Assembly (NCBI GenBank): GCA_023229765.1
Contig: JALNYO010000001.1
Coordinates: 322,993 to 386,992, forward strand
DNA: 64,000 nt
Source: Syntrophales bacterium
GTDB lineage: Bacteria > Desulfobacterota > Syntrophia > Syntrophales > UBA5619
Direction: 5' to 3'
Shown here: positions 4,394 through 59,369 of the stretch, one piece after another
Numbering within the stretch: position 1 is the first letter of the stretch
How the letters are laid out: each line of letters starts with the position of its first letter
Translations under genes and position numbers: made by a program
Notes under the pieces: model-generated
The model's input: the letters and a program-made list of their open reading frames with translations, nothing else
Databases searched by the model: none
What the model was told of the DNA's origin: nothing

Positions 4394-4546
4394 GAGCTAA
4401 TTGCAAAACGCTTTGTCATGCCCGAATGCTTCTGTCTGGCATCCATGATTTCAAACACTTACAAACTGGATTATGAACATTAAGCTTCGCTTTCCCGCCC
4501 CAAAGAGTCGCGGGAATGACAGAGCTGGGAGTTTTGCAATTACCTC
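4394..4546 (+). mobile_element. MITE-like non-autonomous element, copy 1 (153 bp), TSD TGAA
   Basis: Ends GAGCTAATTGCAAAACG...GTCATGCCCG and CGGGAATGAC...GTTTTGCAATTACCTC are inverted repeats. Flanked by direct TGAA (4390-4393 and 4547-4550). Carries one 21-nt unit at 4471-4493. Confidence 0.7.
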
Positions 4547-4566: not shown

Positions 4567-5322
4567 TCAGGAATCTATCTTCCCCGTTTCGCGAATATAT
4601 TTCAGCAGTTTGATCCCTTCAGCAAAATCATGATTGATCTTGAGGCCTTCGTTGATTGTTTCGGCCGCCGTTTTCCATTCTTCCTGGGCAATGTAAACCC
4701 GGGCCATGTTGTAATAAATTCCCTCATCCCGAGGCGAGGCGACGAGGGCCTTTTTGAACTCCTGCAGAGATTCATCATAACTGCCCGCCCGGCGGTGTTC
4801 TATGCCGGCCGTGTTGAAAGCTTCGGCAAGGAGTTCTGCAAGATCATCCTTGTTTTTCAGCAACTCCAGCGCTGCCGTCGGATTTCCGTTTTCAATGAGT
4901 GTTTTAATTATGTTTAATTGAGCTTCTGTGTCGTTAGCCGGGGGAGCGGGATTCGCAGTGCTTTCCTTCTTTTCTTTCGGTTCCTCCAATAGGTCCGTCA
5001 TTTCATCGCTTTTTATTTCAATGAGTTGCTTCATCAATTCGAGAGTGGGGGCGATTTCGTTGTCTCGAAACGTGACAGGCCCATAGATATCGCGGAATTG
5101 TTTGCTCTCCGCGAGGGTCTTCTGGAAATCGTTGATCTCCTTTTGCAGCGCCTTTTCGTCGGCGGGGATCATGTTGGTGGAGCTAATTTTCTCCAGAACC
5201 TCTTTGAATTTCAAGAGGCAGGAAAAAACATTCCCCTTTTGCAGAACGTTTCGGCATTCGGTCAGCCTGTGGGCTATCTTGCCGGCGTCATCCCTGTTTA
5301 TTGCCTCTGTCATTTTGTGCAT
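4567..5322 (-). CDS. TPR-repeat protein
   Basis: 251 aa. The C-terminal half has TPR-like repeats (AFNTAGIEHRRAGSYDESLQEFKKAL; GIYYNMARVYIAQEEWKTAAETINEGL). Confidence 0.65.
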   Translation of the reverse strand: MHKMTEAINRDDAGKIAHRLTECRNVLQKGNVFSCLLKFKEVLEKISSTNMIPADEKALQKEINDFQKTLAESKQFRDIYGPVTFRDNEIAPTLELMKQLIEIKSDEMTDLLEEPKEKKESTANPAPPANDTEAQLNIIKTLIENGNPTAALELLKNKDDLAELLAEAFNTAGIEHRRAGSYDESLQEFKKALVASPRDEGIYYNMARVYIAQEEWKTAAETINEGLKINHDFAEGIKLLKYIRETGKIDS

Positions 5323-5396: not shown

Positions 5397-5570
5397 GAGC
5401 TAATTGCAAAACGCTTTGTCATGCCCGAAAGCGCAGCTTAATGTCCATAATGCTTCTGTCGGGCATCCATGATTTAAAACACTTACAAACTGGATTATGA
5501 ACATTAAGCTTCGCTTTCCCGCCCCAAAGAGTCGCGGGAATGACAGAGCTGGGAGTTTTGCAATTACCTC
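5397..5570 (+). mobile_element. MITE-like element, copy 2 (174 bp), TSD GGCT
   Basis: Same as copy 1 except for two substitutions and an exact 21-bp insertion (AGCGCAGCTTAATGTCCATAA, 5430-5450), which is an inverted copy of the 21-nt unit. Flanked by direct GGCT (5393-5396 and 5571-5574). Confidence 0.7.
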
Positions 5571-8789: not shown

Positions 8790-9446
8790 ATGTCGGAAAA
8801 TATTAAAGAAAAAATTATCGATCTTCCCGGGATTTCGTTTGGAATGATTATTCAGATTCAGGCAGAAGGGTTGGGAATGTCCCACAGCCGCCTGATCGGC
8901 GTAGATTCCGGGGCGTTTCTTATAGTAAAAACTCCTCCCATAATCGATATAGCCACTAAACTATATGATAAGAATAAGATAGTTATCCGCTATTTTTCCG
9001 CTGGATGGGTTTATGCGTTTCGCTGCACTCTGCTTTCTCTGATCAAAGAACCATCGCGTTTGTCCATTCTTTCTTATCCTGAGAACATTGAAAAAATCAA
9101 TATCAGGAAACATGACCGGGTTGACTGCAATATCCCGGTTGAGATGATAATAGAAAAGAAAACATATAATGGCATTGTGACGAACATAAGCGCCGGCGGC
9201 CTATCTTTGGAGATTGCCAAAACAGGGGATGAGGAGGCGCCGCAATTGAATATCCAGGATGTTATTTCCCTGACGGTGCAGCGCGAGGCGGAGCAGGCTA
9301 CATCTTTAAAAACGATAGTCCGCAATATTAAAATAGAGCGGACCGTGATGAAAATTGGCATGGAGTTCTACGCTCAGGGTGCTTCACAGGGTGAAGGGCA
9401 GGGCGAAAAAAAGTGGCTGGAGGATTTAGTTTCTGAAAATCTGTGA
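8790..9446 (+). CDS. PilZ-domain c-di-GMP receptor, YcgR-like (flagellar brake type)
   Basis: RKHDR (RxxxR) followed by NISAGG (N/DxSxxG). The N-terminal half resembles the YcgR N-domain. Confidence 0.8.
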   Translation: MSENIKEKIIDLPGISFGMIIQIQAEGLGMSHSRLIGVDSGAFLIVKTPPIIDIATKLYDKNKIVIRYFSAGWVYAFRCTLLSLIKEPSRLSILSYPENIEKINIRKHDRVDCNIPVEMIIEKKTYNGIVTNISAGGLSLEIAKTGDEEAPQLNIQDVISLTVQREAEQATSLKTIVRNIKIERTVMKIGMEFYAQGASQGEGQGEKKWLEDLVSENL

Positions 9447-18741: not shown

Positions 18742-18915
18742 GAGGTAATTGCAAAACTCCCCATTCTTGTCATTCCCGCAACGATTCTGAGCGGGAATCT
18801 GGTTCTAATTGCTTGAAAAACCATATTATGAACATTAAGCTTCGCTTTCCCGATAGAGACATTATGAACATTAAGCTTCGCTTTCGGGAATGACAAATGG
18901 TTTTGCAATTATCTC
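18742..18915. mobile_element. MITE-like element, copy 3 (174 bp), TSD TATT
   Basis: Left end GAGGTAATTGCAAAACTCCCCATTCTTGTCATTCCCGC, right end CGGGAATGACAAATGGTTTTGCAATTATCTC. Flanked by direct TATT (18738-18741 and 18916-18919). Contains two 21-nt units (18826-18848, 18862-18884). Confidence 0.7.
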
Positions 18916-18919
18916 TATT

Positions 18920-19498
18920 TTATTGAAATTTTACCTGCGGCGCGGCCTGGGCGGTTGCCGGCGCCTCAAAGAAGGCCGCCTTTGCGAAGCCGAACATCCC
19001 AGCCACCATATTGGCGGGGAAGCTGCGGATCAGCACGTTGTAGGTTTGCACCGCTTCGTTGTAACGCTTTCTCTCGACGGCGATCCGGTTTTCCGTTCCG
19101 GCCAGCTCATCCTGGAGCCGCAGAAAATTTACATTGGACTTTAAATCCGGGTACTTTTCGACAACGACCAAAAGCCTGCTCAAGGCGCCGGTAAGCTCGT
19201 TATTGGCAGTTATTTTATCGGGAACGTTTGACGCCCCGCCTACCCTGGCGCGCGCGTTGGTCACCTCGACGAGAACGTCCTTTTCCTGTTTCGCATAGCC
19301 CTTTACCGTTTCCACCAGATTCGGGATCAGGTCGTATCGGCGCTGGAGCTGATTTTCCACCTGTGCCCAAGACGCCTTGACCCCCTCGTCGAGGGTGACG
19401 AACTGGTTATACGTGCCCTTGAAAAAGGAGTAAAAGGCGCCAGCCAGCAACACGATCACAATGACAGCGATCAAAAATATTTTCTTTCCACTTGTCAT
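18920..19498 (-). CDS. lemA: LemA family membrane protein
   Basis: MTSGKKIFLIAVIVIVLL (TM), then VKASWAQVENQLQRRYDLIPNLVETVKGYA...YNEAVQTYN. AGGAGGA Shine-Dalgarno before ATG 19498. The longer ORF back to 19717 only translates a DNA repeat. Confidence 0.85.
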   Translation of the reverse strand: MTSGKKIFLIAVIVIVLLAGAFYSFFKGTYNQFVTLDEGVKASWAQVENQLQRRYDLIPNLVETVKGYAKQEKDVLVEVTNARARVGGASNVPDKITANNELTGALSRLLVVVEKYPDLKSNVNFLRLQDELAGTENRIAVERKRYNEAVQTYNVLIRSFPANMVAGMFGFAKAAFFEAPATAQAAPQVKFQ

Positions 19499-19535
19499 AA
19501 CATCCTCCTGTAAATGTTGTAAAACCAATAAATGT

Positions 19536-19715
<180 letters not shown>

Positions 19716-19726
19716 ATGTCCTTCCA

Positions 19727-20473: not shown

Positions 20474-21256
20474 TCAGAATCCGCGGCTCGAGCCGCCCCC
20501 GCCGCTCATACCGCCGCCAAACCCGCCGAAGCCGCCGCCGAAACCGTCGTCGCCGCCGCGCCTTCCCCCGCCGCCGCTGTTCATCAGCAACAGCAGAATC
20601 CAGGGCAGCATGGCCCGGCCCTGTTTTGTCCCGAGGAGAAATCCCGCGGCGACAATCAGCAATAATAATTGGAAAATGCTTATTTTTCTTTGCGGTTTTA
20701 CCTGTTTTTGAGGCGGGCTGTTCACGCCTTCGGCGCCGATGGTTACGCCGGCGTCTTTGGCGACGATCTTGGCAATAACCGATAATGTTTCATAAAGGCC
20801 CTTGCCGTAATCGCCGGCGCGAAAATTGGGAACGGCGTGCTGATCGAGAATTTCGCCGGTCAGGCCGTCGGGCAGAATGCCCTCTACCCCGTAACCTGTT
20901 TCGATGCGAACCCGCCGCTCCTTGACGGTCAGAAGGATCAGCGCCCCCTTGTCCTCGCCTTTTTTCCCGATTCCCCACGCCTGGTAAAGGCGGTTGGCAT
21001 AGTCGTTCAGGTCGCCCTCCCCGATCGTGGGTATGGTGGCGACAACCAGCGCCGTCCCCGTGCTTTGAAAAATTTCCCGGGCGATATTTTCCATTGGGGC
21101 TTTATAGACGTCCGGAATTACGCCGGCGAAGTCGTTGATCGCCCCCGCTGGTTTCGGAAAAGCGGCATCGGCTGCCGAAGCCACTGACGCGAAAGTCATG
21201 AATGCCAGGGCAAACAGCAGGGAGACGATTATTTTGAAAGAGGATTTGTTTTTCAT
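20474..21256 (-). CDS. TPM-domain (YgcG-like) protein with a TM segment and glycine-rich tail
   Basis: Signal peptide. INDFAGVI...LVVATIPTIGEGDLNDYANRLYQAWGIGKKGEDKGALILLTVKERRVRIETGYG matches the TPM phosphatase-domain pattern. C-terminus GGGGRRGGDDGFGGGFGGFGGG. Confidence 0.8.
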   Translation of the reverse strand: MKNKSSFKIIVSLLFALAFMTFASVASAADAAFPKPAGAINDFAGVIPDVYKAPMENIAREIFQSTGTALVVATIPTIGEGDLNDYANRLYQAWGIGKKGEDKGALILLTVKERRVRIETGYGVEGILPDGLTGEILDQHAVPNFRAGDYGKGLYETLSVIAKIVAKDAGVTIGAEGVNSPPQKQVKPQRKISIFQLLLLIVAAGFLLGTKQGRAMLPWILLLLMNSGGGGRRGGDDGFGGGFGGFGGGMSGGGGSSRGF

Positions 21257-25845: not shown

Positions 25846-25950
25846 TTACCGCTCCTTCTAATGCTGATTTTTCCCTCTTATTTTCACGCGAAATGCATGC
25901 CGATAAATTGTTGATTTATAAATGGTTCCCTTCCAGGCAACCTCGACGGG

Positions 25951-25992
25951 CATTAAAATTCGTTTTTTGAACATTAAACTTCGTTTTCATCC
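25951..25992 (+). repeat. Two degenerate 21-nt units (CATTAAAATTCGTTTTTTGAA / CATTAAACTTCGTTTTCATCC)
   Basis: Exact 21-nt period (25951 and 25972), between the TolC stop and the MFP start. Confidence 0.5.
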
Positions 25993-50792: not shown

Positions 50793-50811
50793 TTATGAAC
50801 ATTAAGCTTTA
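50793..50811 (+). repeat. Partial 21-nt unit (TTATGAACATTAAGCTTTA)
   Basis: Matches the unit core. Lies between convergent genes. Confidence 0.5.
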
Positions 50812-50828
50812 CTGGCCAAAGCAGTCTT

Positions 50829-51242
50829 CTACCAGAGAAGATCAACCCCCATCGCCCGCACCGGGCATGCCAAAACGCATAGTTCACAGCCTGTGCAAAG
50901 CTCCGTATCGAAATTAACCCGCCATGATTCGCGATCCAGATGCAGGGCGCCGGTGGGACAGACGCCGGTGCAGGTTCCGCAGTGGATGCACTTTTCGGTG
51001 TTTTGACTGACGCTTTTGGAAAGCGGTTCGACGCCGAGTCCGAGCGACTTGAGGTAACGAATGCCGTCGTCGAAATTTTCTTTTGTGCCGCTCAGCTCCA
51101 GAACGAGGAGCCCTTCGCGTCTGGGCAGGATTCTGGCCTTCAGGATATTCAACATCAGATCGTACCGCTTCACCAACTCGTAGATAATCGGTCTCTCCGA
51201 AGATTCCGCAGGGTAGTGGATAACCACCTTTTTTGAGTGCAT
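50829..51242 (-). CDS. NIL-domain plus 2x[4Fe-4S] ferredoxin-domain protein
   Basis: N-terminal NIL-like fold (VVIHYPAESSERPIIYELVKRYDLMLNILKARI), then CIHCGTCTGVCP and CTGCELCVLACP. Start taken at ATG 51242. Confidence 0.75.
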   Translation of the reverse strand: MHSKKVVIHYPAESSERPIIYELVKRYDLMLNILKARILPRREGLLVLELSGTKENFDDGIRYLKSLGLGVEPLSKSVSQNTEKCIHCGTCTGVCPTGALHLDRESWRVNFDTELCTGCELCVLACPVRAMGVDLLW

Positions 51243-51247
51243 TTTTC

Positions 51248-51745
51248 TTATGATCTCCTTATTTCCAAAAGATTGTCCCATTCTATTGCCGGGAATGTCG
51301 CAAGCAGGCTGTGGTCGTCTTTGACGAGGCGATAATCGAGATTCCGAAAAATAGACTGCGCGACCTCGCAAGTAGGTTCCGGAAGAACGACGGTGTCTTC
51401 GCTTCCCTGGTAGAGTGTGACTGGCATCTGAAGTGGCTCGCGGCAGCGGGCGTGGAAGTCTGCATAGGCGAGGGCCGGGGCGAGCAGCACGAGACGCCGG
51501 ACGCGCTTTTCGTTCTCACAGGCGAAAATTGCCGCCATGAGACCGCCGAAACTTGAGCCAACGATGATTATATTGTCTTTACTTCCAATATATTCCGAGA
51601 GTTTGCTCATCCTTTCATTTAACGTTCCCTGGTAGTCACCGACCATCATCTCGGGGTATCTTTTTCTGAAGTATCTTCCCTTTGTTCCCTGGCTGCTGCT
51701 GTCCAACCCGTGGATAAATACGTGTGTAATATCGTCCATTCCCAC
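51248..51745 (-). CDS. Alpha/beta hydrolase (YqiA-like esterase)
   Basis: HVFIHGLDSS..., nucleophile elbow GSSFGG, and a C-terminal D..H. Confidence 0.7.
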   Translation of the reverse strand: MGMDDITHVFIHGLDSSSQGTKGRYFRKRYPEMMVGDYQGTLNERMSKLSEYIGSKDNIIIVGSSFGGLMAAIFACENEKRVRRLVLLAPALAYADFHARCREPLQMPVTLYQGSEDTVVLPEPTCEVAQSIFRNLDYRLVKDDHSLLATFPAIEWDNLLEIRRS

Positions 51746-51787: not shown

Positions 51788-51834
51788 AAATCGAAGATTA
51801 ATGTTCATAAATCGAAGATTAATGTTCATAAAGC
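51788..51834 (+). repeat. Two tandem 21-nt units in a divergent promoter region
   Basis: AAATCGAAGATTAATGTTCATAAATCGAAGATTAATGTTCATAAAGCG. Confidence 0.85.
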
Positions 51835-52000
51835 GTCCGCCTACCCCGTTTTTTTAAAAAATTCTGCAAGAATTATTGCTTTCCTTATCCCGGTATGTTA
51901 AAAATTTGCAAGCAAAATGAATGAAACGGCAGCCGTTTTTGTTATAAAATGCCATACTTCTCAATAATTGACGCGCCGTTCGGAAAGAAGGGAGAGGAAG

Positions 52001-53347
52001 ATGTCGATAGTGGTGCCGTTCAGGGCGCTGCGGCCGCGGGGTGAGTTTGTCGGCGCAGTCGCCGCGCTTCCCTATGATGTTATGAGTGTGGAGGAGGCGC
52101 GGCAGCAGATAAAAAAAAATCCGCTCAGTTTCCTGCGGGTGGAGAAGGCCGAATGCGATTTTCCCGGTGAAGAGGAGACTGCTGAACAGATTGTCTGTCA
52201 AAGAGCCAAGGATAATCTGGAAAGGATGATTAAAGAGGGCATCCTTGGTCAGGATGAATCTGCCTCGTTTTATCTCTATCGGCAGCAAATGGGTGGGCAT
52301 GTGCAAACGGGTGTCGTGGCCTGTGTCAGCGTTGATGAATACAGAAAAGGCCGGATAAAAGCCCATGAGCTTACCCTGGAAGCCAAGGAAAGGGGACGGA
52401 CGCTGCATATCGACAGCATTGGGGCGCAGACCGGGCCGGTATTTCTTACCTATCGGGGCCAGGAACAGATAGACAGTTTGCTGGCGAAAGTGGCAAAACA
52501 GGTTCCCGAGTATGATTTTACGGCGGACGACGGAATTCGTCACACTGCGTGGATAATTGGCGAGCTTGCGGATATAAAGGCGCTTCAAAAGGCCTTTTTG
52601 CCGGTTGAGTACCTTTACATAGCCGATGGCCACCACCGCGCCGCCGCCGCCGTCCGGGTAGCCGGTCTGCGGGCGGAACTTTCGTCCGGGAAATCGAAGA
52701 TTAATGTTCATAAATCGAAGATTAATGTTCATAAAGCGGAGCTTAGTGTTCATAAAAAGGCGGTCAGCGAGCATGATTTTATGCTGGCGGTACTGTTTCC
52801 CAGCGACCAGTTGCGGATCATGGATTACAACCGTGCCGTCAGGGATTTAAACGGCCTTGCCAGGGACGAGTTTTTGGAAGAGATAGCGGATAAATTTCTT
52901 ATAGCGAAAGACTTTCCGGAGAAAGCGGAGCTTAATGTTCATAAATCGAAGATTAGTGTTCATAAATTGCCCCGGCGGCCCCATGACTTCGGCATGTATC
53001 TGCAGGGAAAATGGTATCTTCTGTCGGCCCGTGAAAAGGCGCTGCCAAAGGCAAAACAGGCCGCCGCGCTTGATGTTTCCGTTTTGCAGGATAACATCCT
53101 GGGGCCGGTTCTCGGGATCGAGAACCCGCGCACGGATAAGCGAATTGCCTTCATTGGAGGGGCACGCGGTGCAGCCGGTCTGGAGAGCATTGTTGACAGG
53201 GATGGTTTTGCCGTCGCCTTTTCCCTTTTTCCGCCGACAGTTGAGCAGATGATGGCCGTGGCTGATGCAGGGATGGTCATGCCGCCCAAATCCACCTGGT
53301 TTGAGCCGAAGCTGCGGAGCGGCTTGTTCGTCCATCTTATCGATTAG
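52001..53347 (+). CDS. DUF1015-family protein carrying two in-frame repeat insertions
   Basis: MSIVVPFRALRP...LPYDVMS...YLYRQ...HELT...YIADGHHRAAAA pattern of DUF1015. GGAGAGGA Shine-Dalgarno before ATG 52001. Insertions lie at 52691-52756 and 52921-52966. Confidence 0.8.
   Translation: MSIVVPFRALRPRGEFVGAVAALPYDVMSVEEARQQIKKNPLSFLRVEKAECDFPGEEETAEQIVCQRAKDNLERMIKEGILGQDESASFYLYRQQMGGHVQTGVVACVSVDEYRKGRIKAHELTLEAKERGRTLHIDSIGAQTGPVFLTYRGQEQIDSLLAKVAKQVPEYDFTADDGIRHTAWIIGELADIKALQKAFLPVEYLYIADGHHRAAAAVRVAGLRAELSSGKSKINVHKSKINVHKAELSVHKKAVSEHDFMLAVLFPSDQLRIMDYNRAVRDLNGLARDEFLEEIADKFLIAKDFPEKAELNVHKSKISVHKLPRRPHDFGMYLQGKWYLLSAREKALPKAKQAAALDVSVLQDNILGPVLGIENPRTDKRIAFIGGARGAAGLESIVDRDGFAVAFSLFPPTVEQMMAVADAGMVMPPKSTWFEPKLRSGLFVHLID
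52691..52756 (+). repeat. Three tandem 21-nt units inside the DUF1015 CDS (encode KSKINVHKSKINVHKAELSVHKK)
   Basis: Direct reading. The 21-nt period keeps the frame. Confidence 0.9.
52921..52966 (+). repeat. Two tandem 21-nt units inside the DUF1015 CDS (encode KAELNVHKSKISVHK)
   Basis: Direct reading, in the same frame as the first insertion. Confidence 0.9.
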
Positions 53348-53349
53348 CT

Positions 53350-54123
53350 ATGAGTGGCAATTTTTTGCAGCGGGAAGGGGAGAAGATCGATCGGATCCTC
53401 GCCGGCCGGCTCCGGATCATTCAGAAGGAGAGGGGTTATCGCTTTTCGATAGATGCCCTTTTGCTTGCCCATTTCGTCAATTTAAATGCCGGCGATGACC
53501 TTATTGAGCTGGGAACGGGAAGTGGGATTGTTGCGCTTATCCTGGCGCAACACCCTGGCCTCGGGCGTGTTTTGGGGATCGAGATTCAGGAACAGCTTGT
53601 TGCCATTGCCCGAAGCAATGTTTCCCTGAACGGCCTGACCGACAGGGTTGAAATCAGGCAGGCAGACGTCCGCTTTCCGGAATCCCTTTGTCGGCCGCAA
53701 GCCTTTTCCGTCGCGGTATTCAACCCCCCTTACCGGCGGATGCGCTCGGGCAGGCTCAATCCCGATGCGGAGAAGGCCGCCGCCCGCCACGAAGTCTTCG
53801 GAACGGTGAAGGATTTTATCGCCGCTGCCGCTTACGCCCTGCGGCCGGGCGGACGGATGTTTGCAATTTATCCCGCGACCAGAATGGTGGAGTTGATCGC
53901 ACGGATGCGATCATTCCGGATCGAGCCCCGGCGGCTGCGACTTGTCTATTCCCGAACCGGCGTGGCGGCTGTTTTTGTTCTCGTGGAGGGAACAAAGGGG
54001 GGCGGTGAGAGCCTGGACGTTCTGCCGCCGCTTCTCATTTACGAGGCAAAGGGGGAATATACAGCCGCAATGAACGATATTTTCAAGGATCTTGCCGCTT
54101 TTGAATCGCCCGGCGCCGGCTGA
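53350..54123 (+). CDS. SAM-dependent methyltransferase, tRNA1(Val) m6A37 (YfiC/TrmN6)-like
   Basis: LELGTGSGIVALIL SAM motif and the FNPPYR (NPPY) catalytic motif. Confidence 0.8.
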   Translation: MSGNFLQREGEKIDRILAGRLRIIQKERGYRFSIDALLLAHFVNLNAGDDLIELGTGSGIVALILAQHPGLGRVLGIEIQEQLVAIARSNVSLNGLTDRVEIRQADVRFPESLCRPQAFSVAVFNPPYRRMRSGRLNPDAEKAAARHEVFGTVKDFIAAAAYALRPGGRMFAIYPATRMVELIARMRSFRIEPRRLRLVYSRTGVAAVFVLVEGTKGGGESLDVLPPLLIYEAKGEYTAAMNDIFKDLAAFESPGAG

Positions 54124-54604
54124 TCTCCCTGATCATCGTCCTTTCGATCGCCGCTCGGAGTTCCGGATCCCCGATCGCAGCGAGGCTCTGCTCCACCATT
54201 TGCCGGTCTCGTAATCGGAGCTTCTGGATGACCAAAGCGGGGGGGGGCTTGTCGGGCGCCTGGGAAGGGCTCTCAGGAACCTCGCCGATCGAGAAAAAAA
54301 GACGCCTGAATTCGTCCGTGCCGGACAGTTCGTTAAGCTTGACGAGGATTTCCTCCTTGAGAAACTGCAGTTGATGAAGCCAGACCGTGGTAGAAACGAT
54401 CACGTACAGCGAACCCCTTTTGAGATTTTCCGGCAGGGTGCGCGAGGCGATCAGGGGGCCAACAGCGCGTTCCCACAAATCTACAAGACGGCGGTCTGTC
54501 CTTTGGTGGGGAATGTCCATTTTTTTTAGAACCTTGTGGAGGATATCCCCGAGCGGTTCCGGTTTTCTGGATGAAGTTCTCTTGCGCATGGTCTCTTTTC
54601 TCAC
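54083..54604 (-). CDS. DUF721 (DciA-like) protein
   Basis: LGDILHKVLKK...LVDLWERAVGP.IA..T.P..LKRGSLYV.V.....L..L.F pattern. Confidence 0.7.
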   Translation of the reverse strand: MRKETMRKRTSSRKPEPLGDILHKVLKKMDIPHQRTDRRLVDLWERAVGPLIASRTLPENLKRGSLYVIVSTTVWLHQLQFLKEEILVKLNELSGTDEFRRLFFSIGEVPESPSQAPDKPPPALVIQKLRLRDRQMVEQSLAAIGDPELRAAIERTMIREISRRRAIQKRQDP

Positions 54605-54745
54605 ATTTTGCGGTTGCGGGTCAAGCAGCAGGGTTTTCCCGGGGTAAAATATTTCGCTTGACCTCTTCGCTGTTGCCGGGTTAGCAGAAACAAACGCTTT
54701 ATCGGCTTGACAGGGGCGTATTTTGAATGAGGGAGGGAAAACTGT

Positions 54746-55096
54746 ATGAGTTTAACAGCCATGATCGACAGTATCAAGGGACAACCCGATTACAAACGAG
54801 TGGGGATGATTGTCTGTCACAACGGGGTTGTGCGGGGAACAGCGAGGGACGGCAGAGTGGTGAACGAGATCGAGGTAACCGCTGATCGCCGCCGGCTTGA
54901 CGATATAATTGCGGAAATGAGAACCCGGCCAGGAATCATCGCTGTTCTGGTGGAGGTTTATGAGGGAAGACTGAAGGTCGGCGACGATATCATGTGTGTG
55001 GCGGTGGCCGGCGATATCCGGGAGAACACCTTTCCCGTCCTGGAGGATGCGGTCAACGCGATTAAGCGGGATGTTGTAACGAAGGTTGAAATCTAA
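54746..55096 (+). CDS. MoaE-like (molybdopterin synthase large-subunit fold) small protein
   Basis: GMIVCHNGVVRG...VEVYEGRLKVGDDIMCVAVAGDIRENTF..LEDAVNAIKRDV resembles the MoaE pattern. Confidence 0.55.
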   Translation: MSLTAMIDSIKGQPDYKRVGMIVCHNGVVRGTARDGRVVNEIEVTADRRRLDDIIAEMRTRPGIIAVLVEVYEGRLKVGDDIMCVAVAGDIRENTFPVLEDAVNAIKRDVVTKVEI

Positions 55097-55116
55097 GGAA
55101 TTTTCAGGATGGGAAT

Positions 55117-55773
55117 GTGGCGGACATCTTTCAGAAACAAAGACTAAAAATGGTTGACCTCCAGGTGCGGGGAAGGGGGATATCCGATCAGCGGTTGCTC
55201 AGGGCAATGGAGAAGATTCCGCGCCATCTCTTCATCGCGGAGGGCTTGCGCGACCAGGCGTACAACGACCGTCCCCTTCCCATTGAAGAGCAGCAGACGA
55301 TCTCGCAGCCCTATATCGTGGCTTTGATGTCCGCAGCGCTGGAACTGACGGGAAGAGAAAGGGTGCTGGAGATCGGAACCGGTTCCGGATATCAAACGGC
55401 GATTCTTGCCGAGCTGGCCGAACGGGTCTTTTCCATCGAGCGCATTGCCGCTTTGGCCGCCGGGGCAAGAAGGACTCTCGATGCCCTCGCTTATTTCAAT
55501 GTTGCCATCCGCGTTGGCGACGGAACCTTCGGGTGGCGCGAGGAGTCGCCTTTTGCGGCGATCATGGCGACCGCCGGCGCCCCGCAAGTTCCCAGACTGT
55601 TAATCGAACAACTGGCCATCGGCGGCCGTCTGGTGATTCCTGTGGGTGGGCGCAATTCCCAAACCCTGCTCAGACTGACCAGGCTCTCGGATGATCCTGA
55701 AGATCTCAGGCAGGAAGAACTATGCGGGTGCCGTTTTGTAGATCTGATTGGGGAACACGGATGGAAAAACTGA
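55117..55773 (+). CDS. pcm: Protein-L-isoaspartate O-methyltransferase
   Basis: QTISQPYIVALM, VLEIGTGSGYQTAILA, GGRLVIPVG. Confidence 0.9.
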   Translation: MADIFQKQRLKMVDLQVRGRGISDQRLLRAMEKIPRHLFIAEGLRDQAYNDRPLPIEEQQTISQPYIVALMSAALELTGRERVLEIGTGSGYQTAILAELAERVFSIERIAALAAGARRTLDALAYFNVAIRVGDGTFGWREESPFAAIMATAGAPQVPRLLIEQLAIGGRLVIPVGGRNSQTLLRLTRLSDDPEDLRQEELCGCRFVDLIGEHGWKN

Positions 55774-56726
55774 ACAAAGAGTTTTATCGTCCTATTTCTC
55801 CAGCGGGAAGATGGGGCGCCCTTGCCTTTTTTCTGCTTTTATTTATCATCATTTCCTGTTCAGGGTTGCCCTTTAAGGAAGCCGGACCGAGTGGGGTTTA
55901 TCACCGGGTAAAAAGCGGGGAGACACTCTCTGCCATTGCCAAAGCTTACCACACCGATCTGCAGAGTCTGGCCGAGATTAACAATATAACCAATCCTTCC
56001 CTGATCGAGAAGGACAGCGTGATCTTTATCCCCCATGCACAAATGGTTATCGACGAAATAGAAATTATCGCCAGAGCTAAAAAAACAAAGACAAAAAGCA
56101 CCGTAAAGGAACCCGTCCTTGAAAAGAGAACCTTCCCCACTGGCCAAGTTGTTCAAGATCCCCGGAAAAAATCGGACGTTGCCCAAAAAAATCGGAAAAA
56201 TGTTTCAGACGACCTTCTGAAGGAAGAGACCATATACCCCTCCCAGGAGACCGCCAGGAAAAGCGCCGCGGGAAGTCCTGAAGAAAAAATCACATTGTGG
56301 AAACCCGAGAAAGCGGCGGGTAAAAATGAAAAACAGGAGCAGGTGCGTTTTAATAAAAACATTTTCATTTGGCCGGTTAAAGGAAAGGTTGTCTCTTTTT
56401 TTGGCGTACAGCCCAACCGAATGGTTTTCAACGGGATTCGGATTGCGGCCCCTGAAGGCGCCGTTGTTGTTGCAGCCGGGGATGGCGTTGTCATCCATTC
56501 GGACCCTTTAAAATATTATGGCGAGACAATAATCATCCAGCATGCGGATGATTATGCATCTGTTTATGCCAATCTGGGCGTCCGTATCGCCGGTTTAAAC
56601 GAGCGGGTGAAAAAGGGCGACAGGATTGGTTTTATCGGCAGCGACTCCAGAACGGGGGAGGCAACTCTCCATTTTGAGATCAGAAATAAAAATAAGGCCA
56701 GAAATCCCCTTTTTTTCCTTCCCTGA
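55761..56726 (+). CDS. nlpD: LysM plus M23 peptidase lipoprotein (NlpD-like)
   Basis: LysM YHRVKSGETLSAIAKAYHTDLQSLAEIN. M23 GIRIAAPEGAVVVAAGDGVV...IIQHADDYASVYANL...LHFEIR. The ORF is open from 55722. Confidence 0.85.
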   Translation: MEKLNKEFYRPISPAGRWGALAFFLLLFIIISCSGLPFKEAGPSGVYHRVKSGETLSAIAKAYHTDLQSLAEINNITNPSLIEKDSVIFIPHAQMVIDEIEIIARAKKTKTKSTVKEPVLEKRTFPTGQVVQDPRKKSDVAQKNRKNVSDDLLKEETIYPSQETARKSAAGSPEEKITLWKPEKAAGKNEKQEQVRFNKNIFIWPVKGKVVSFFGVQPNRMVFNGIRIAAPEGAVVVAAGDGVVIHSDPLKYYGETIIIQHADDYASVYANLGVRIAGLNERVKKGDRIGFIGSDSRTGEATLHFEIRNKNKARNPLFFLP

Positions 56727-56770
56727 AAACGGAGTTTAGTGTTCATAAAGCGGAGCTTAGTGTTCATAAA
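56726..56770 (+). repeat. Two tandem 21-nt units starting at the nlpD-like stop codon
   Basis: AAAACGGAGTTTAGTGTTCATAAAGCGGAGCTTAGTGTTCATAAA. Confidence 0.85.
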
Positions 56771-56921
56771 ACGAAAAAGCCTTGTCGGACATATAAAAAA
56801 CTGGTTTCCGGCAAGTGGAGTTCATAACCCGCAAGCTTCTCGAAACATCGCGAATCGCATTGACTATTCTTGAAAAATCTGATATCATCGCTATCCAAAA
56901 CTAAACACTATAGGTGTAAAA

Positions 56922-57407
56922 ATGTTCAATGTTGGCGATTTAGCGGTATATCCAGCGCAGGGAGTGGGAATCATCGAGGCAATTGAAAACAGGGAAGTTG
57001 GAGGCGCCAGGCAGAAGTTCTACATAATGAAAATTATGAGCAATGGGATGAAAATCATGATCCCCCTGGATGGCGCCCAGACTGCCGGTTTGCGCAAGGT
57101 GATCAAGGAAAAGGAGATCCCCAAGATATACGAGATTCTGAAAAACAGGGATTTTACGATTGACAAGCAGACGTGGAACAAAAGATACAGGGAATATCTG
57201 GAAAAGATAAAAACGGGCTCGGTATTTGAGATAGCCAGGGTTCTGCGGGATCTTTGCGTTCTTAAAATCGACAAGAACCTCTCTTTTGGCGAGCGGAAGA
57301 TGATGGATACGGCCAAGGGGCTCCTCGTCAAGGAGATTTCCGTTGCGACCAATGCCGAGGAGGCGAAGATCGAAGAGGATATCAATACGATCTTTACCGT
57401 GCAGTGA
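56922..57407 (+). CDS. carD: CarD/CdnL-family transcriptional regulator
   Basis: MFNVGDLAVYPAQGVGIIEAIE...FYIMKI... is the RNAP-interacting Tudor-like N-terminus. Confidence 0.9.
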   Translation: MFNVGDLAVYPAQGVGIIEAIENREVGGARQKFYIMKIMSNGMKIMIPLDGAQTAGLRKVIKEKEIPKIYEILKNRDFTIDKQTWNKRYREYLEKIKTGSVFEIARVLRDLCVLKIDKNLSFGERKMMDTAKGLLVKEISVATNAEEAKIEEDINTIFTVQ

Positions 57408-57502
57408 AGTTTTATCTCGCCTGTTAGGGGGAAGGAGTTTTTGCAGATGAAGGGGGGTGAATAGAACTGATTGTAAAGGCGATACTGATTATTTTATGTT
57501 CC

Positions 57503-58468
57503 TTGAGCGGTTATTTCATCGCCTATCACAGCTATTACGACTGGTGGAAATGGATCGTCGGCGTTGTTGTCGGGGCGCTGGCGGCAGTGCTGGTAATCCA
57601 GATCGAGAAGATTGCCCGCCGGGTTTCATTGCGGGTTATCCTCGGCGGCGTTGTCGGGATGCTGATTGGTCTTTTAATTGCTTTTTTACTTGCCTATGGT
57701 TTGAATTTCGTCAGCAATATTATGGAGAACCGCCAGGTTGTCCCCTGGATTTATACGCTTCTTACCGCGGCATTGGGTTATATGGGGCTGGTTCTCGGCT
57801 CGCAGAAGGTCGAGGAAGTCAGCATGTTCGGCTGGGGGCCCGCTCGGGAAATCAGTGATTATCGGATACTGGATACCAGCGTTATCATCGATGGACGGAT
57901 TGCCGATATTGCGGATACCGGTTTTCTGGAAGGCAATCTGATTGTTCCCCGCTTTGTGCTCGATGAACTCCAGTATGTTGCCGATTCCGCCGATTCCCTC
58001 AAAAGGGCGCGCGGCCGGCGAGGGCTCGATATCCTCAACCGGATGCAGCGCAGCAATGGGATTTTTATTGATGTCGTAGATCATGATTTTCCGAAGATCA
58101 AAGGCGTTGATTCGAAACTTGTTGCCCTGGCGAAAAAGACGAATGGCCGGATTATTACCAATGATTTTAACCTCAACAAGGTCGCCGAGCTGCAGGGGAT
58201 CAGGATTCTCAATGTAAACGAACTGGCCAATGCCCTGAAGCCGGTTGTTCTGCCGGGAGAACTGATGACGGTGAAAATAATCAAGGACGGCAAGGAACCG
58301 GGGCAGGGGGTTGCGTACTTGGAAGACGGCACCATGATCATTGTTGATAACGCGCAGCGCTACCAGGGAGAGAATGTCGAGGCCCTGGTAACCAGTGTTT
58401 TGCAGACAACCGCCGGACGGATGATTTTTTCCGAAATGAAGACGGCGGCAAACGATAAAAAATCTTGA
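57503..58468 (+). CDS. PIN/TRAM-domain membrane-associated protein (YacL-like)
   Basis: N-terminal TM helices, [15 protein letters not shown]...[10 protein letters not shown], and a C-terminal TRAM-like domain. The start is uncertain; the frame is open upstream without a canonical start codon. Confidence 0.8.
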
Positions 58469-58543
58469 AATATATTAAAAAACACTATTGCCATTCGGAA
58501 CGGAACCGGAGTCATTTCGGGTCAGGGGATTGGGGTGGATGGC

Positions 58544-58592
58544 GAAAACGAAGTTTAATGTTCACAAATCGAAGATCAATGTTCATAAAGCG
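58544..58592 (+). repeat. Two tandem 21-nt units upstream of ispD
   Basis: GAAAACGAAGTTTAATGTTCACAAATCGAAGATCAATGTTCATAAAGCG. Confidence 0.85.
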
Positions 58593-58631
58593 CGTATTTG
58601 CCATTCGCCGTTCGTTTCCCAGGTCTGCGGC

Positions 58632-59369
58632 ATGAAAACGAAGTTTAATGTTCATAAAACAGTGGCGATAATACCCGCCGGGGGAACGGGAAGGAGAATG
58701 GGCGGCAGCATCTCCAAACAGTACCTGCTCCTTTCCGGGAAACCGGTTCTTGTTCGCGCCTTACAGCCATTTCAGGATTCACCATTAATAGATGAAATAA
58801 TGCTCGCCGTTCCGGAGGAAGATGTTGTGCAGGTGCGGGAAAACATTGTTGAAAGATACTTCCTGTCGAAGCTTAACCGCGTTGTTGCCGGGGGAAAAGA
58901 ACGACAGGATTCCATCAGAAATGCGCTTGCCTGTATTGCCGATGAAACGGAGATCATTGTCATTCACGATGGAGTCCGTCCGCTTGTTACGACTGAGCTG
59001 ATTGAGATGGCAATCGAACGTGCGGGAAAGTTGGGCGCTGTTGCGACGGGCATTGGCATCCGGGATACGGTGAAACGGGTCGATAAAACAGGAAAAATCG
59101 AAGAGACAGTGCTTAGGGACGGTTTGTGGCTGACGCAAACTCCCCAGGCCTTTAAGCGGGACATTCTTCTCGCCGCTTACCGCGTGGCGGAGGAAACGGG
59201 ATTTTACGGTACCGACGACGCCTCGCTCGTCGAGAAGGCCGGAATACCCGTCTGGATGATTCCCGGCGACAGGGAAAATCTCAAGGTGACGACGCAAGAG
59301 GACATGATGATCTGCGCAAGGATCCTGCAGTACCGAGAAAAAGACTTGAGTGATATCAGGCGGATCTGA
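58632..59369 (+). CDS. ispD: 2-C-methyl-D-erythritol 4-phosphate cytidylyltransferase
   Basis: VAIIPAGGTGRRMG...KQYL, VIHDGVRP, TQTPQAF. ATG 58632 lies inside a 21-nt unit; an alternative GTG start is at 58662. Confidence 0.9.
   Translation: MKTKFNVHKTVAIIPAGGTGRRMGGSISKQYLLLSGKPVLVRALQPFQDSPLIDEIMLAVPEEDVVQVRENIVERYFLSKLNRVVAGGKERQDSIRNALACIADETEIIVIHDGVRPLVTTELIEMAIERAGKLGAVATGIGIRDTVKRVDKTGKIEETVLRDGLWLTQTPQAFKRDILLAAYRVAEETGFYGTDDASLVEKAGIPVWMIPGDRENLKVTTQEDMMICARILQYREKDLSDIRRI
58634..58660 (+). repeat. Single 21-nt unit forming the first codons of ispD
   Basis: GAAAACGAAGTTTAATGTTCATAAAAC, translated as KTKFNVHK. Confidence 0.85.

Follow-up and report, generated by a model that had tools for sequence, protein, structure and literature searches.

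A dispersed 21-nt repeat of Syntrophales lies in frame at two sites of a DUF1015 gene

A 64,000-nt stretch of a Syntrophales bacterium assembly (GCA_023229765.1, contig JALNYO010000001.1, positions 322,993 to 386,992 of the forward strand), hereafter the window, carries a gene of the DUF1015 family with short tandem repeats inside its coding sequence. The gene runs from an ATG at 52001 to a stop codon at 53345-53347, encodes 448 aa plus the stop, and matches Pfam PF06245 (DUF1015) with E = 8e-100. The original prediction, made from the letters of the window alone, placed three and then two tandem 21-nt units within this intact open reading frame (ORF). Direct reading of the sequence bore this out, and Tandem Repeats Finder (TRF) picked up the first array. 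Insert 1 consists of units at 52691-52711, 52712-52732, and 52733-52753, insert 2 of units at 52922-52942 and 52943-52963, and AAA comes next in both cases. The units were present as described, but the predicted ends 52756, 52921, and 52966 had included flanking A's; the true ends are 52753, 52922, and 52963, respectively. The translations given for the two inserts, KSKINVHKSKINVHKAELSVHKK and KAELNVHKSKISVHK, were correct. Insert 1 reads KSKINVH KSKINVH KAELSVH, from two T-A units and then one G-C/GGA unit (types are named for the bases at unit positions 4 and 10), and insert 2 reads KAELNVH KSKISVH. Insert 1 was also rightly said to come soon after the IADGHHR motif, which occupies residues 207-213, with the insert beginning at residue 231.

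Comparison with orthologues confirmed that the inserts are lineage-specific. The typical DUF1015 orthologue among 8000 homologues is 413 aa long, and the window protein exceeds it by 35 residues (5 x 7). Only three of 26 aligned orthologues carry anything at either insert position. The window protein holds three units at site 1 and two at site 2. P0002, encoded on the related stretch L001 and 92% identical to the window protein, holds two and two, and P0003 (L002, 84% identity) holds four and none. P0004 (L003) and all others, at 75% identity or less, hold none at either site. The heptads themselves drift between relatives, for example to KARLDVH and KSQLNVQ (K to R, N to D, and H to Q). Gene order around DUF1015 is conserved in the relatives' DNA, and the DNA alignments showed that both inserts are exact multiples of 21 nt relative to the empty sites. 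At site 2, the empty sequence in L002 and L003 is CGG-AAAAATTG, and the filled sequence in the window and L001 is CGGAG-(2 units)-AAATTG. Synonymous distances gave the tree ((window, L001), L002), L003, which makes site 1 the older of the two. In a metagenome scan, 75 more distant DUF1015 loci lacked any unit within 1.5 kb, and no further insert-bearing lineages came up. The ratio of nonsynonymous to synonymous substitution rates (dN/dS) was 0.22-0.25 in every DUF1015 pair, with or without inserts; the gene is therefore not decaying and, judging from these ratios, appears to stay under purifying selection.

A structure model supported the suggestion that the inserts occupy surface loops. The AlphaFold2 model of the DUF1015 protein had a mean predicted local distance difference test (pLDDT) score of 77.5, and values below 50 over long segments occurred only at residues 232-254 and 308-320, which are the two inserts. 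Insert 1 follows the helix at residues 211-228, and insert 2 lies between the strands at 299-303 and 329-334, so that both map to predicted loops. The folds nearest to the model were the ParB/Srx-fold free serine kinases SerK (5x0b and 5x0j) and SbnI (5uje and 6nr6), with a Foldseek probability of 1.0 and a target-normalised template modelling (TM) score of about 0.5. This modelled similarity suggests that DUF1015 proteins with the DGHHR motif may be nucleotide-dependent small-molecule kinases or relatives of these. On the opposite strand, a 306-aa ORF (51854-52774, minus) crosses insert 1 in an open reverse frame (FMNINLRFMNINLRF); annotations can acquire spurious ORFs of this kind through such repeats.

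The unit, AAANCGNAGN'TTAATGTTCAT, follows the pattern AAA-N-CG-N-AG-N-TTA-A/G-TGTTCAT (consensus AAANCGNAGNTTAATGTTCAT), with the coding pattern K-x-x-x-N/S-V-H. It has two parts. Positions 2-12 form a mini-hairpin, A-A-N-C / G-N-A / G-N'-T-T, with a 4-bp stem and a 3-nt loop (as a DNA oligonucleotide, d(AAGCGAAGCTT)), followed by a conserved 9-nt tail, AATGTTCAT. This AANC-GNA-GN'TT hairpin is the minimum-free-energy fold, and d(GCGAAGC) is an unusually stable DNA mini-hairpin. In the 237 units of the census given below, positions 5 (C) and 9 (G) are near-invariant, the loop is GAA in 187 and GGA in 32, and positions 4 and 10 form a Watson-Crick pair in 224 (G-C in 142, A-T in 58, and T-A in 24). 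The covariation score, computed on 67 distinct sequences, was reached by 0 of 500 shuffles. The reading frame used in the DUF1015 gene is open, as predicted, but it is not the only one: three of the six are open, namely +1 (KAKLNVH), +2 (KRSLMFI), and -1 (MNIKLRF), and +3 is closed by two TAAs.

The occurrence of the same repeat in intergenic DNA, which had likewise been noted, was confirmed at about 10 further places in the window on both strands, against a chance expectation of 0 (0 of 100 shuffles; Table 1). A genome collection was then scanned for the unit with one genome per species, giving at least 120 stretches. All listed matches among these came from metagenome-assembled genomes named Syntrophus, Syntrophaceae, Syntrophales, or unclassified delta-proteobacterium. 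A search of protein databases with concatenated heptads returned 6 weak matches, the query being short and repetitive, and the census was therefore made at the DNA level. Covering the window and the at least 120 related stretches (0.9 Mb), it counted 237 units in 195 arrays, comprising 162 singles, 26 doublets, 5 triplets, and 2 quadruplets. No Rfam family reached its gathering threshold in the window, and promoter and terminator scans at the arrays gave no signal above shuffles.

Table 1. Positions in the window of the DUF1015 gene, the 21-nt units, and the longer elements that contain them
Feature	Position	Strand	Source
DUF1015-family host gene, 448 aa + stop	52001..53347	+	ORF call, Pfam PF06245
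Insert 1: three tandem 21-nt units, residues 231-251	52691..52753	+	sequence, TRF
Insert 2: two tandem units, residues 308-321	52922..52963	+	sequence
Intergenic two-unit array upstream of the DUF1015 gene	51788..51829	+	sequence, TRF
Intergenic two-unit array starting on the last TGA base of an M23-peptidase-like ORF (55722-56726)	56726..56767	+	
Two units upstream of ispD, in frame with ispD	58545..58586	+	
One unit between ATG (58632-58634) and codon 2 of ispD	58635..58655	+	
Intergenic array (one good unit, one decayed) flanked by two minus-strand efflux genes of the same orientation	25946..25987	-	
Partial or decayed unit, 3' 16 nt intact	50795..50815	-	
Element copy A; one unit at 4473-4493 (minus); position after GTCATGCCCG empty	4398..4542	+	
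Element copy B; units at 5428-5448 (plus) and 5497-5517 (minus)	5401..5566	+	
Third element copy; units at 18828-18848 and 18864-18884 (minus) at two different internal positions	18746..18911	+	

The arrays near the DUF1015 gene change between relatives in both number and type. The intergenic array at 51788-51829 matches units 1 and 2 of insert 1, 900 nt away, at 100% identity, and its place holds four units in L002 and none in L003. Arrays orthologous to that at 56726 lie at 14607 in L001 and, in decayed form, at 13798 in L003; the three represent one site with coordinated differences at positions 4 and 10 and mark it as old, with unit types that turned over. The rare T-A subfamily (AAATCGAAGATT...) has 14 of its 24 copies in one syntenic region of about 7 kb (51788-58655 in the window, L001, and L002), which suggests local spread or gene conversion between nearby arrays. 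Arrays mix subfamilies, as insert 1 does (T-A, T-A, G-C), and slippage alone is therefore insufficient. Site 1 of L002, with four near-identical units, is what slippage would give. Just upstream of the partial unit at 50795-50815 as the gene is read, that is, with the unit just downstream of it, lies an additional minus-strand ORF (50829-51371) with ferredoxin-like CxxCxxCxxxCP motifs (identified by eye), between a 150-aa ORF and an alpha/beta-hydrolase gene. At the matching spot, 9273-9344, L001 has 71 nt only.

The junctions of the units were consistent across loci. The base at -1 was G in 64 of 75 distinct stand-alone arrays (85%), and positions +1 to +3 were AA(A/T). Pairs of filled and empty sites showed a repeat of 2 nt (AA) at most and are equally compatible with no target duplication. 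At the level of these alignments, they show whole 21-nt units gained and lost precisely between G and AA(A/T). Orientation was biased as well. Stand-alone intergenic arrays between same-strand genes were co-oriented with them in 16 cases versus 4, and arrays embedded in the longer element described next were split 23 versus 23. Of 44 arrays, 36 had the sense strand of the unit on the G-rich strand, and 41 of 55 had it on the main gene strand. Conflict between GC skew and gene strand is limited to 3 loci, and replication and transcription effects are therefore inseparable.

About 60% of the arrays (115 of 195) are embedded in an element of about 145 nt that resembles a miniature inverted-repeat transposable element (MITE). 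It has 12-bp terminal inverted repeats (TIRs), TAATTGCAAAAC...GTTTTGCAATTA, and internal GC-rich hairpins, GTCAT(T/G)CCCG...CGGGAATGAC, with about 25 copies in the related stretches L001-L120 besides those of the window. Copies A and B lie in direct orientation on either side of a TPR-protein gene (4567-5322, minus); apart from a few substitutions, they differ by a single additional unit in copy B, CCCG^(unit)^AATG. In an alignment of 28 element copies, at least four internal positions held units in some elements and were vacant in others; the units occurred in 0, 1, or 2 copies and in either orientation, and always at C(C/G)GG^AA(T/A). No partner of insertion sequence (IS) length and no autonomous partner was found by searching for pairs of the element's TIR. 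The TPR gene between copies A and B was considered as a REP-associated tyrosine transposase (RAYT; REP, repetitive extragenic palindromic) and rejected, as Pfam shows TPR repeats alone.

DUF1015 is one of several gene families into which the unit has entered in frame. In ispD, the empty start in L003 is ATG^AAAACAGTG, that is, ATG^AAA ACA GTG (M-K-T-V-A-I-I-P). The window has ATG^AAAACGAAGTTTAATGTTCAT^AAA ACA GTG, giving M-(KTKFNVH)-KTVAIIPAGG, and L001 holds two units there. About one fifth of the stand-alone arrays are directly preceded by ATG, and a unit lies exactly between ATG and codon 2 in at least 11 real genes, ispD included. Ten of these post-ATG cases belong to Pfam families, and the domain begins at profile position 1-3 right after the units. 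The families are MocA-type oxidoreductase, NifX-like (two), RpiB, class-V aminotransferase, POR subunit, YitT, HD-domain protein, GNAT/RimI, and penicillin amidase. In L016, two units lie in frame +3 of a RibE gene; both are of a C13+C21 variant without either stop, and a PDB riboflavin synthase aligned to RibE leaves a clean 14-residue gap opposite the units. In a HipA gene with one reverse-frame unit, an insertion was not demonstrable, the loop of E. coli HipA being likewise long. A Der/EngA GTPase ORF at about 5800-5960 of L011 seemingly reads M-K-A and several heptads, partly N-masked, before the conserved KPVIAIIGRPNVGKS, perhaps an N-terminal extension of 6-7 units.

Taken together, these results are best explained by a selfish, lineage-specific, non-coding micro-repeat that is tolerated in protein loops, a reading to which we assign a probability of about 0.75. 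The placement of inserts in genes, confined to open frames and tolerant positions, is a pattern seen directly in the alignments; its cause would be as follows. The inserting activity would act in trans. With its 21-nt length, its AAA start, and its open hydrophilic frame K-x-K/E-L/I-N-V-H, a unit entering before an in-phase AAA or AAT codon would keep the frame. Copies would persist only at places that can accommodate seven more residues per unit, in surface loops or after ATG before an AAA second codon. A G^AAA target combined with purifying selection is sufficient to explain the frame +1 survivors in loops and after ATG-AAA, and post-ATG enrichment beyond the expectation from this target is a rough estimate only. 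Arrays may change as further units enter the regenerated G/T^AAA junction, through slippage, and as conversion replaces units. The peptide inserts would then be neutral passengers rather than functional modules. On the question, raised in the original prediction, of whether the inserts are tolerated loops or have been co-opted, tolerance fits better and co-option less well, given the 3/2/4 units and the heptad drift among relatives.

Several observations weigh against this reading or parts of it. For sites inside the longer element, the direction of change, gain or loss, is ambiguous. The search pattern partly dictated the AA at +1 and +2, which is also present in the copies of the window and L001-L003 that were found independently of that pattern. 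Site 2 of the DUF1015 gene requires an additional GAA to GAG change to have G at -1. Nearest-neighbour energies make the hairpin a weak one (-0.4 to -1.7 kcal/mol, not beyond what shuffles give), and just one of its four stem pairs varies, so that three founder subfamilies could mimic the covariation. Neutrality is argued indirectly, from copy-number variation and low model confidence. A tblastn search of the 0.9 Mb, with partial genomes as targets, found no IS200/IS608-type TnpA. No transposase-like ORF was flanked by units in the examined loci; the genes so flanked were all ordinary (a TPR protein, an aldehyde-oxidoreductase-like protein, and an isochorismatase-like protein).

With regard to the machinery, the leading guess, held at low probability, is trans-mobilisation of the unit as a single-stranded DNA hairpin by a site-specific enzyme of the HUH/tyrosine-transposase type or a comparable one, and an RNA-templated route would be an alternative. 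A more specific proposal is that the unit is the substrate of undescribed Syntrophia machinery characterised by a GNA-triloop hairpin, a G^AA target, and a start-codon/AAA preference, or that post-ATG copies have been recruited as translation-initiation enhancers. We regard this as unlikely. If it were true, machinery with a start-codon preference would amount to natural N-terminal and loop tagging, continually remodelling protein ends.

The rival closest in kind is that the units are canonical REP elements or REP doublets forming hairpins (REPINs), moved by a RAYT (TnpA-REP) encoded elsewhere, with the gene inserts being ordinary intragenic REPs. REPs with GTAG/CGTC occur in many species and include intragenic, N-terminal, and double frame-keeping insertions (PMC3733652, PMC6006769). 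Like them, the unit is a short, high-copy hairpin repeat with a conserved flank, mostly intergenic, for which mobilisation in trans has been proposed in the REP case (PMC6006769, PMC3733652, PMC3116915); its 21 nt match the lower bound of the REP range, 21-65 nt (PMC6006769), and its precise gain and loss without obvious target duplication would fit as well. However, no GT[AG]G/CGTC tag was present at the hairpin foot, in the consensus, or in the flanks. The stem has 4 bp, far shorter than the fully paired basal stem of 7-20 nt that defines REPs (PMC6006769), and units that occur together are mostly direct tandem repeats, not inverted doublets. The DNA examined yielded no Y1 transposase, and no RAYT gene flanked by units (a REPtron) was found in the window and the 0.9 Mb of related loci. 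This explanation is accordingly quite unlikely. We give similarly poor odds to co-option, in which the units serve as Lys/His-rich loops, N-terminal tags, or A/T-rich initiation enhancers kept by selection. The many arrays exactly after ATG are necessarily translated, their share of stand-alone arrays (~20%) seemingly exceeds that among intergenic G^AAW sites on a rough estimate, stand-alone arrays are strongly sense-oriented, and arrays persist over synonymous distances (dS) of about 0.3-0.5. Yet unit number (3/2/4) and sequence vary among close relatives, the host proteins are unrelated, and the inserts are predicted to be disordered. The unit also occurs in non-coding DNA and, in either orientation, inside another repeat, and the ATG-AAA placement is explained by the target and purifying selection without function.

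Sites for a DNA-binding protein, iteron- or operator-like, that were spread for regulation and are incidental within genes would account for a length of 21 bp (two helical turns), a partial dyad GAAnnTTAAnnTTC, and copies that cluster near gene 5' ends with an orientation bias. Distances to promoters are not constant, the scans for promoters and terminators did not exceed shuffles, and units also sit at variable positions in the longer element, at gene 3' ends, and in coding loops. The base-exact G^AA junctions favour a mechanism of insertion over selection for binding, and we hold this explanation to be very unlikely. Local slippage of a Lys-rich coding stretch, giving an ordinary intragenic variable number tandem repeat (VNTR), or an assembly artefact is hardly credible. 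The adjacent identical units at 52691 and 52712 and the copy-number differences do resemble slippage products, and short-read assemblers do break at such repeats. Nevertheless, more than 200 matching copies are spread over unrelated loci, empty sites contain no proto-repeat, subfamilies are mixed within arrays, and the inserts recur in three independent assemblies, made from different samples, within an intact ORF that is under purifying selection.

The preferred reading, a selfish micro-repeat, can be placed among known repeat families. Small dispersed repeats (SDR1-8) of 21-27 nt were reportedly described in Nostoc punctiforme and relatives by Elhai et al. (2008, Genome Res 18:1484). They appear to be the nearest analogue, sharing the size class, the absence of coding capacity, a short preferred site, presence in a subset of near-identical sequences, and nesting in other repeats. 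The two differ in host (Syntrophia versus Nostocaceae) and seem unrelated in sequence, and the exact-period tandem arrays, the G^AA target, the post-ATG placement, and the in-frame inserts may be features of the 21-nt unit's own. To our knowledge, how such ultra-small dispersed repeats move has been an open question since the cyanobacterial ones were described. The cyanobacterial repeats (Elhai 2008) are cited in PMC3116915 and PMC5861425. No literature was found on small dispersed repeats of this kind in Syntrophus.

The original prediction had compared the inserts with Rickettsia palindromic elements (RPEs). According to PMC10969869, which refers to Ogata et al. 2000 and 2002, these are palindromes of about 100-150 bp that encode 30-50 residues and occur as single insertions in obligate intracellular alpha-proteobacteria. 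The comparison was right in kind: a selfish repeat lies in frame in unrelated functional genes (DUF1015, RibE, ispD, and other N-termini), is predicted to be compatible with the fold, and encodes a conserved peptide. It failed in scale and form, as the unit is about 7 times smaller at 21 nt, has a 4-bp stem instead of a long imperfect palindrome of 100-150 bp, forms tandem arrays, and occurs in free-living anaerobes. By analogy, RPEs seem less close than cyanobacterial small dispersed repeats and intragenic REPs. In-frame invasion of genes by repeats is already known, and the 21-nt unit is an unusually small new example. Bacterial MITEs, described in PMC10969869 as 70-300 bp long with TIRs of 15-30 bp and target duplications, are likewise non-autonomous and dispersed and can form in-frame fusions. 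The 21-nt unit has neither that length nor TIRs and instead inserts into a genuine MITE-like element. With VNTRs and mycobacterial interspersed repetitive units, the unit shares a period that is a multiple of three, strain-variable copy number, and arrays overlapping stop or start codons (56726 and 58635). Those repeats arise in situ with a locus-specific unit, whereas the 21-nt unit occupies hundreds of unrelated sites (more than 100 unrelated loci) with exact empty counterparts that hold no proto-unit. In contrast to arrays of clustered regularly interspaced short palindromic repeats (CRISPR), the units adjoin without spacers and are dispersed over many loci.

Two other repeats were observed in the window. 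A tandem heptanucleotide array at 19599-19714 (AACCG-N-N, about 16.6 copies, also with period 21) lies at the 5' end of a LemA-family ORF (18920-19717, minus) and, if translated, would give GSRFPVTG-like repeats. LemA itself probably starts at MTSGKK further downstream, and the array, which recalls the short tandemly repeated repetitive (STRR) heptamers of cyanobacteria, may be a 5' leader. At 20499-20577, short-period CCG-rich repeats (periods 3, 9, 12, and 21) code for the C-terminal, Gly-rich tail (GGGGRRGGDDGFGGGFGGFGGG...) of an ORF at 20474-21256 (minus).

Herein, our findings push the lower size limit of gene-invading repeats to 21 nt, or 7 residues, in hosts that are free-living syntrophic anaerobes and not intracellular bacteria with reduced genomes. 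A length that is a multiple of three and an open hydrophilic frame would act as a frame filter, through which selection admits units into loops and N-termini, with a stop-free variant serving in the otherwise closed frame, as in RibE. The units cause mis-called start codons, spurious antisense ORFs, and contig breaks, and the length-polymorphic proteins that result from them could serve as strain markers. With a defined unit, a G^AA target, many filled and empty pairs, and a candidate structural signal, these Syntrophales genomes offer a tractable system for the movement of ultra-small repeats.

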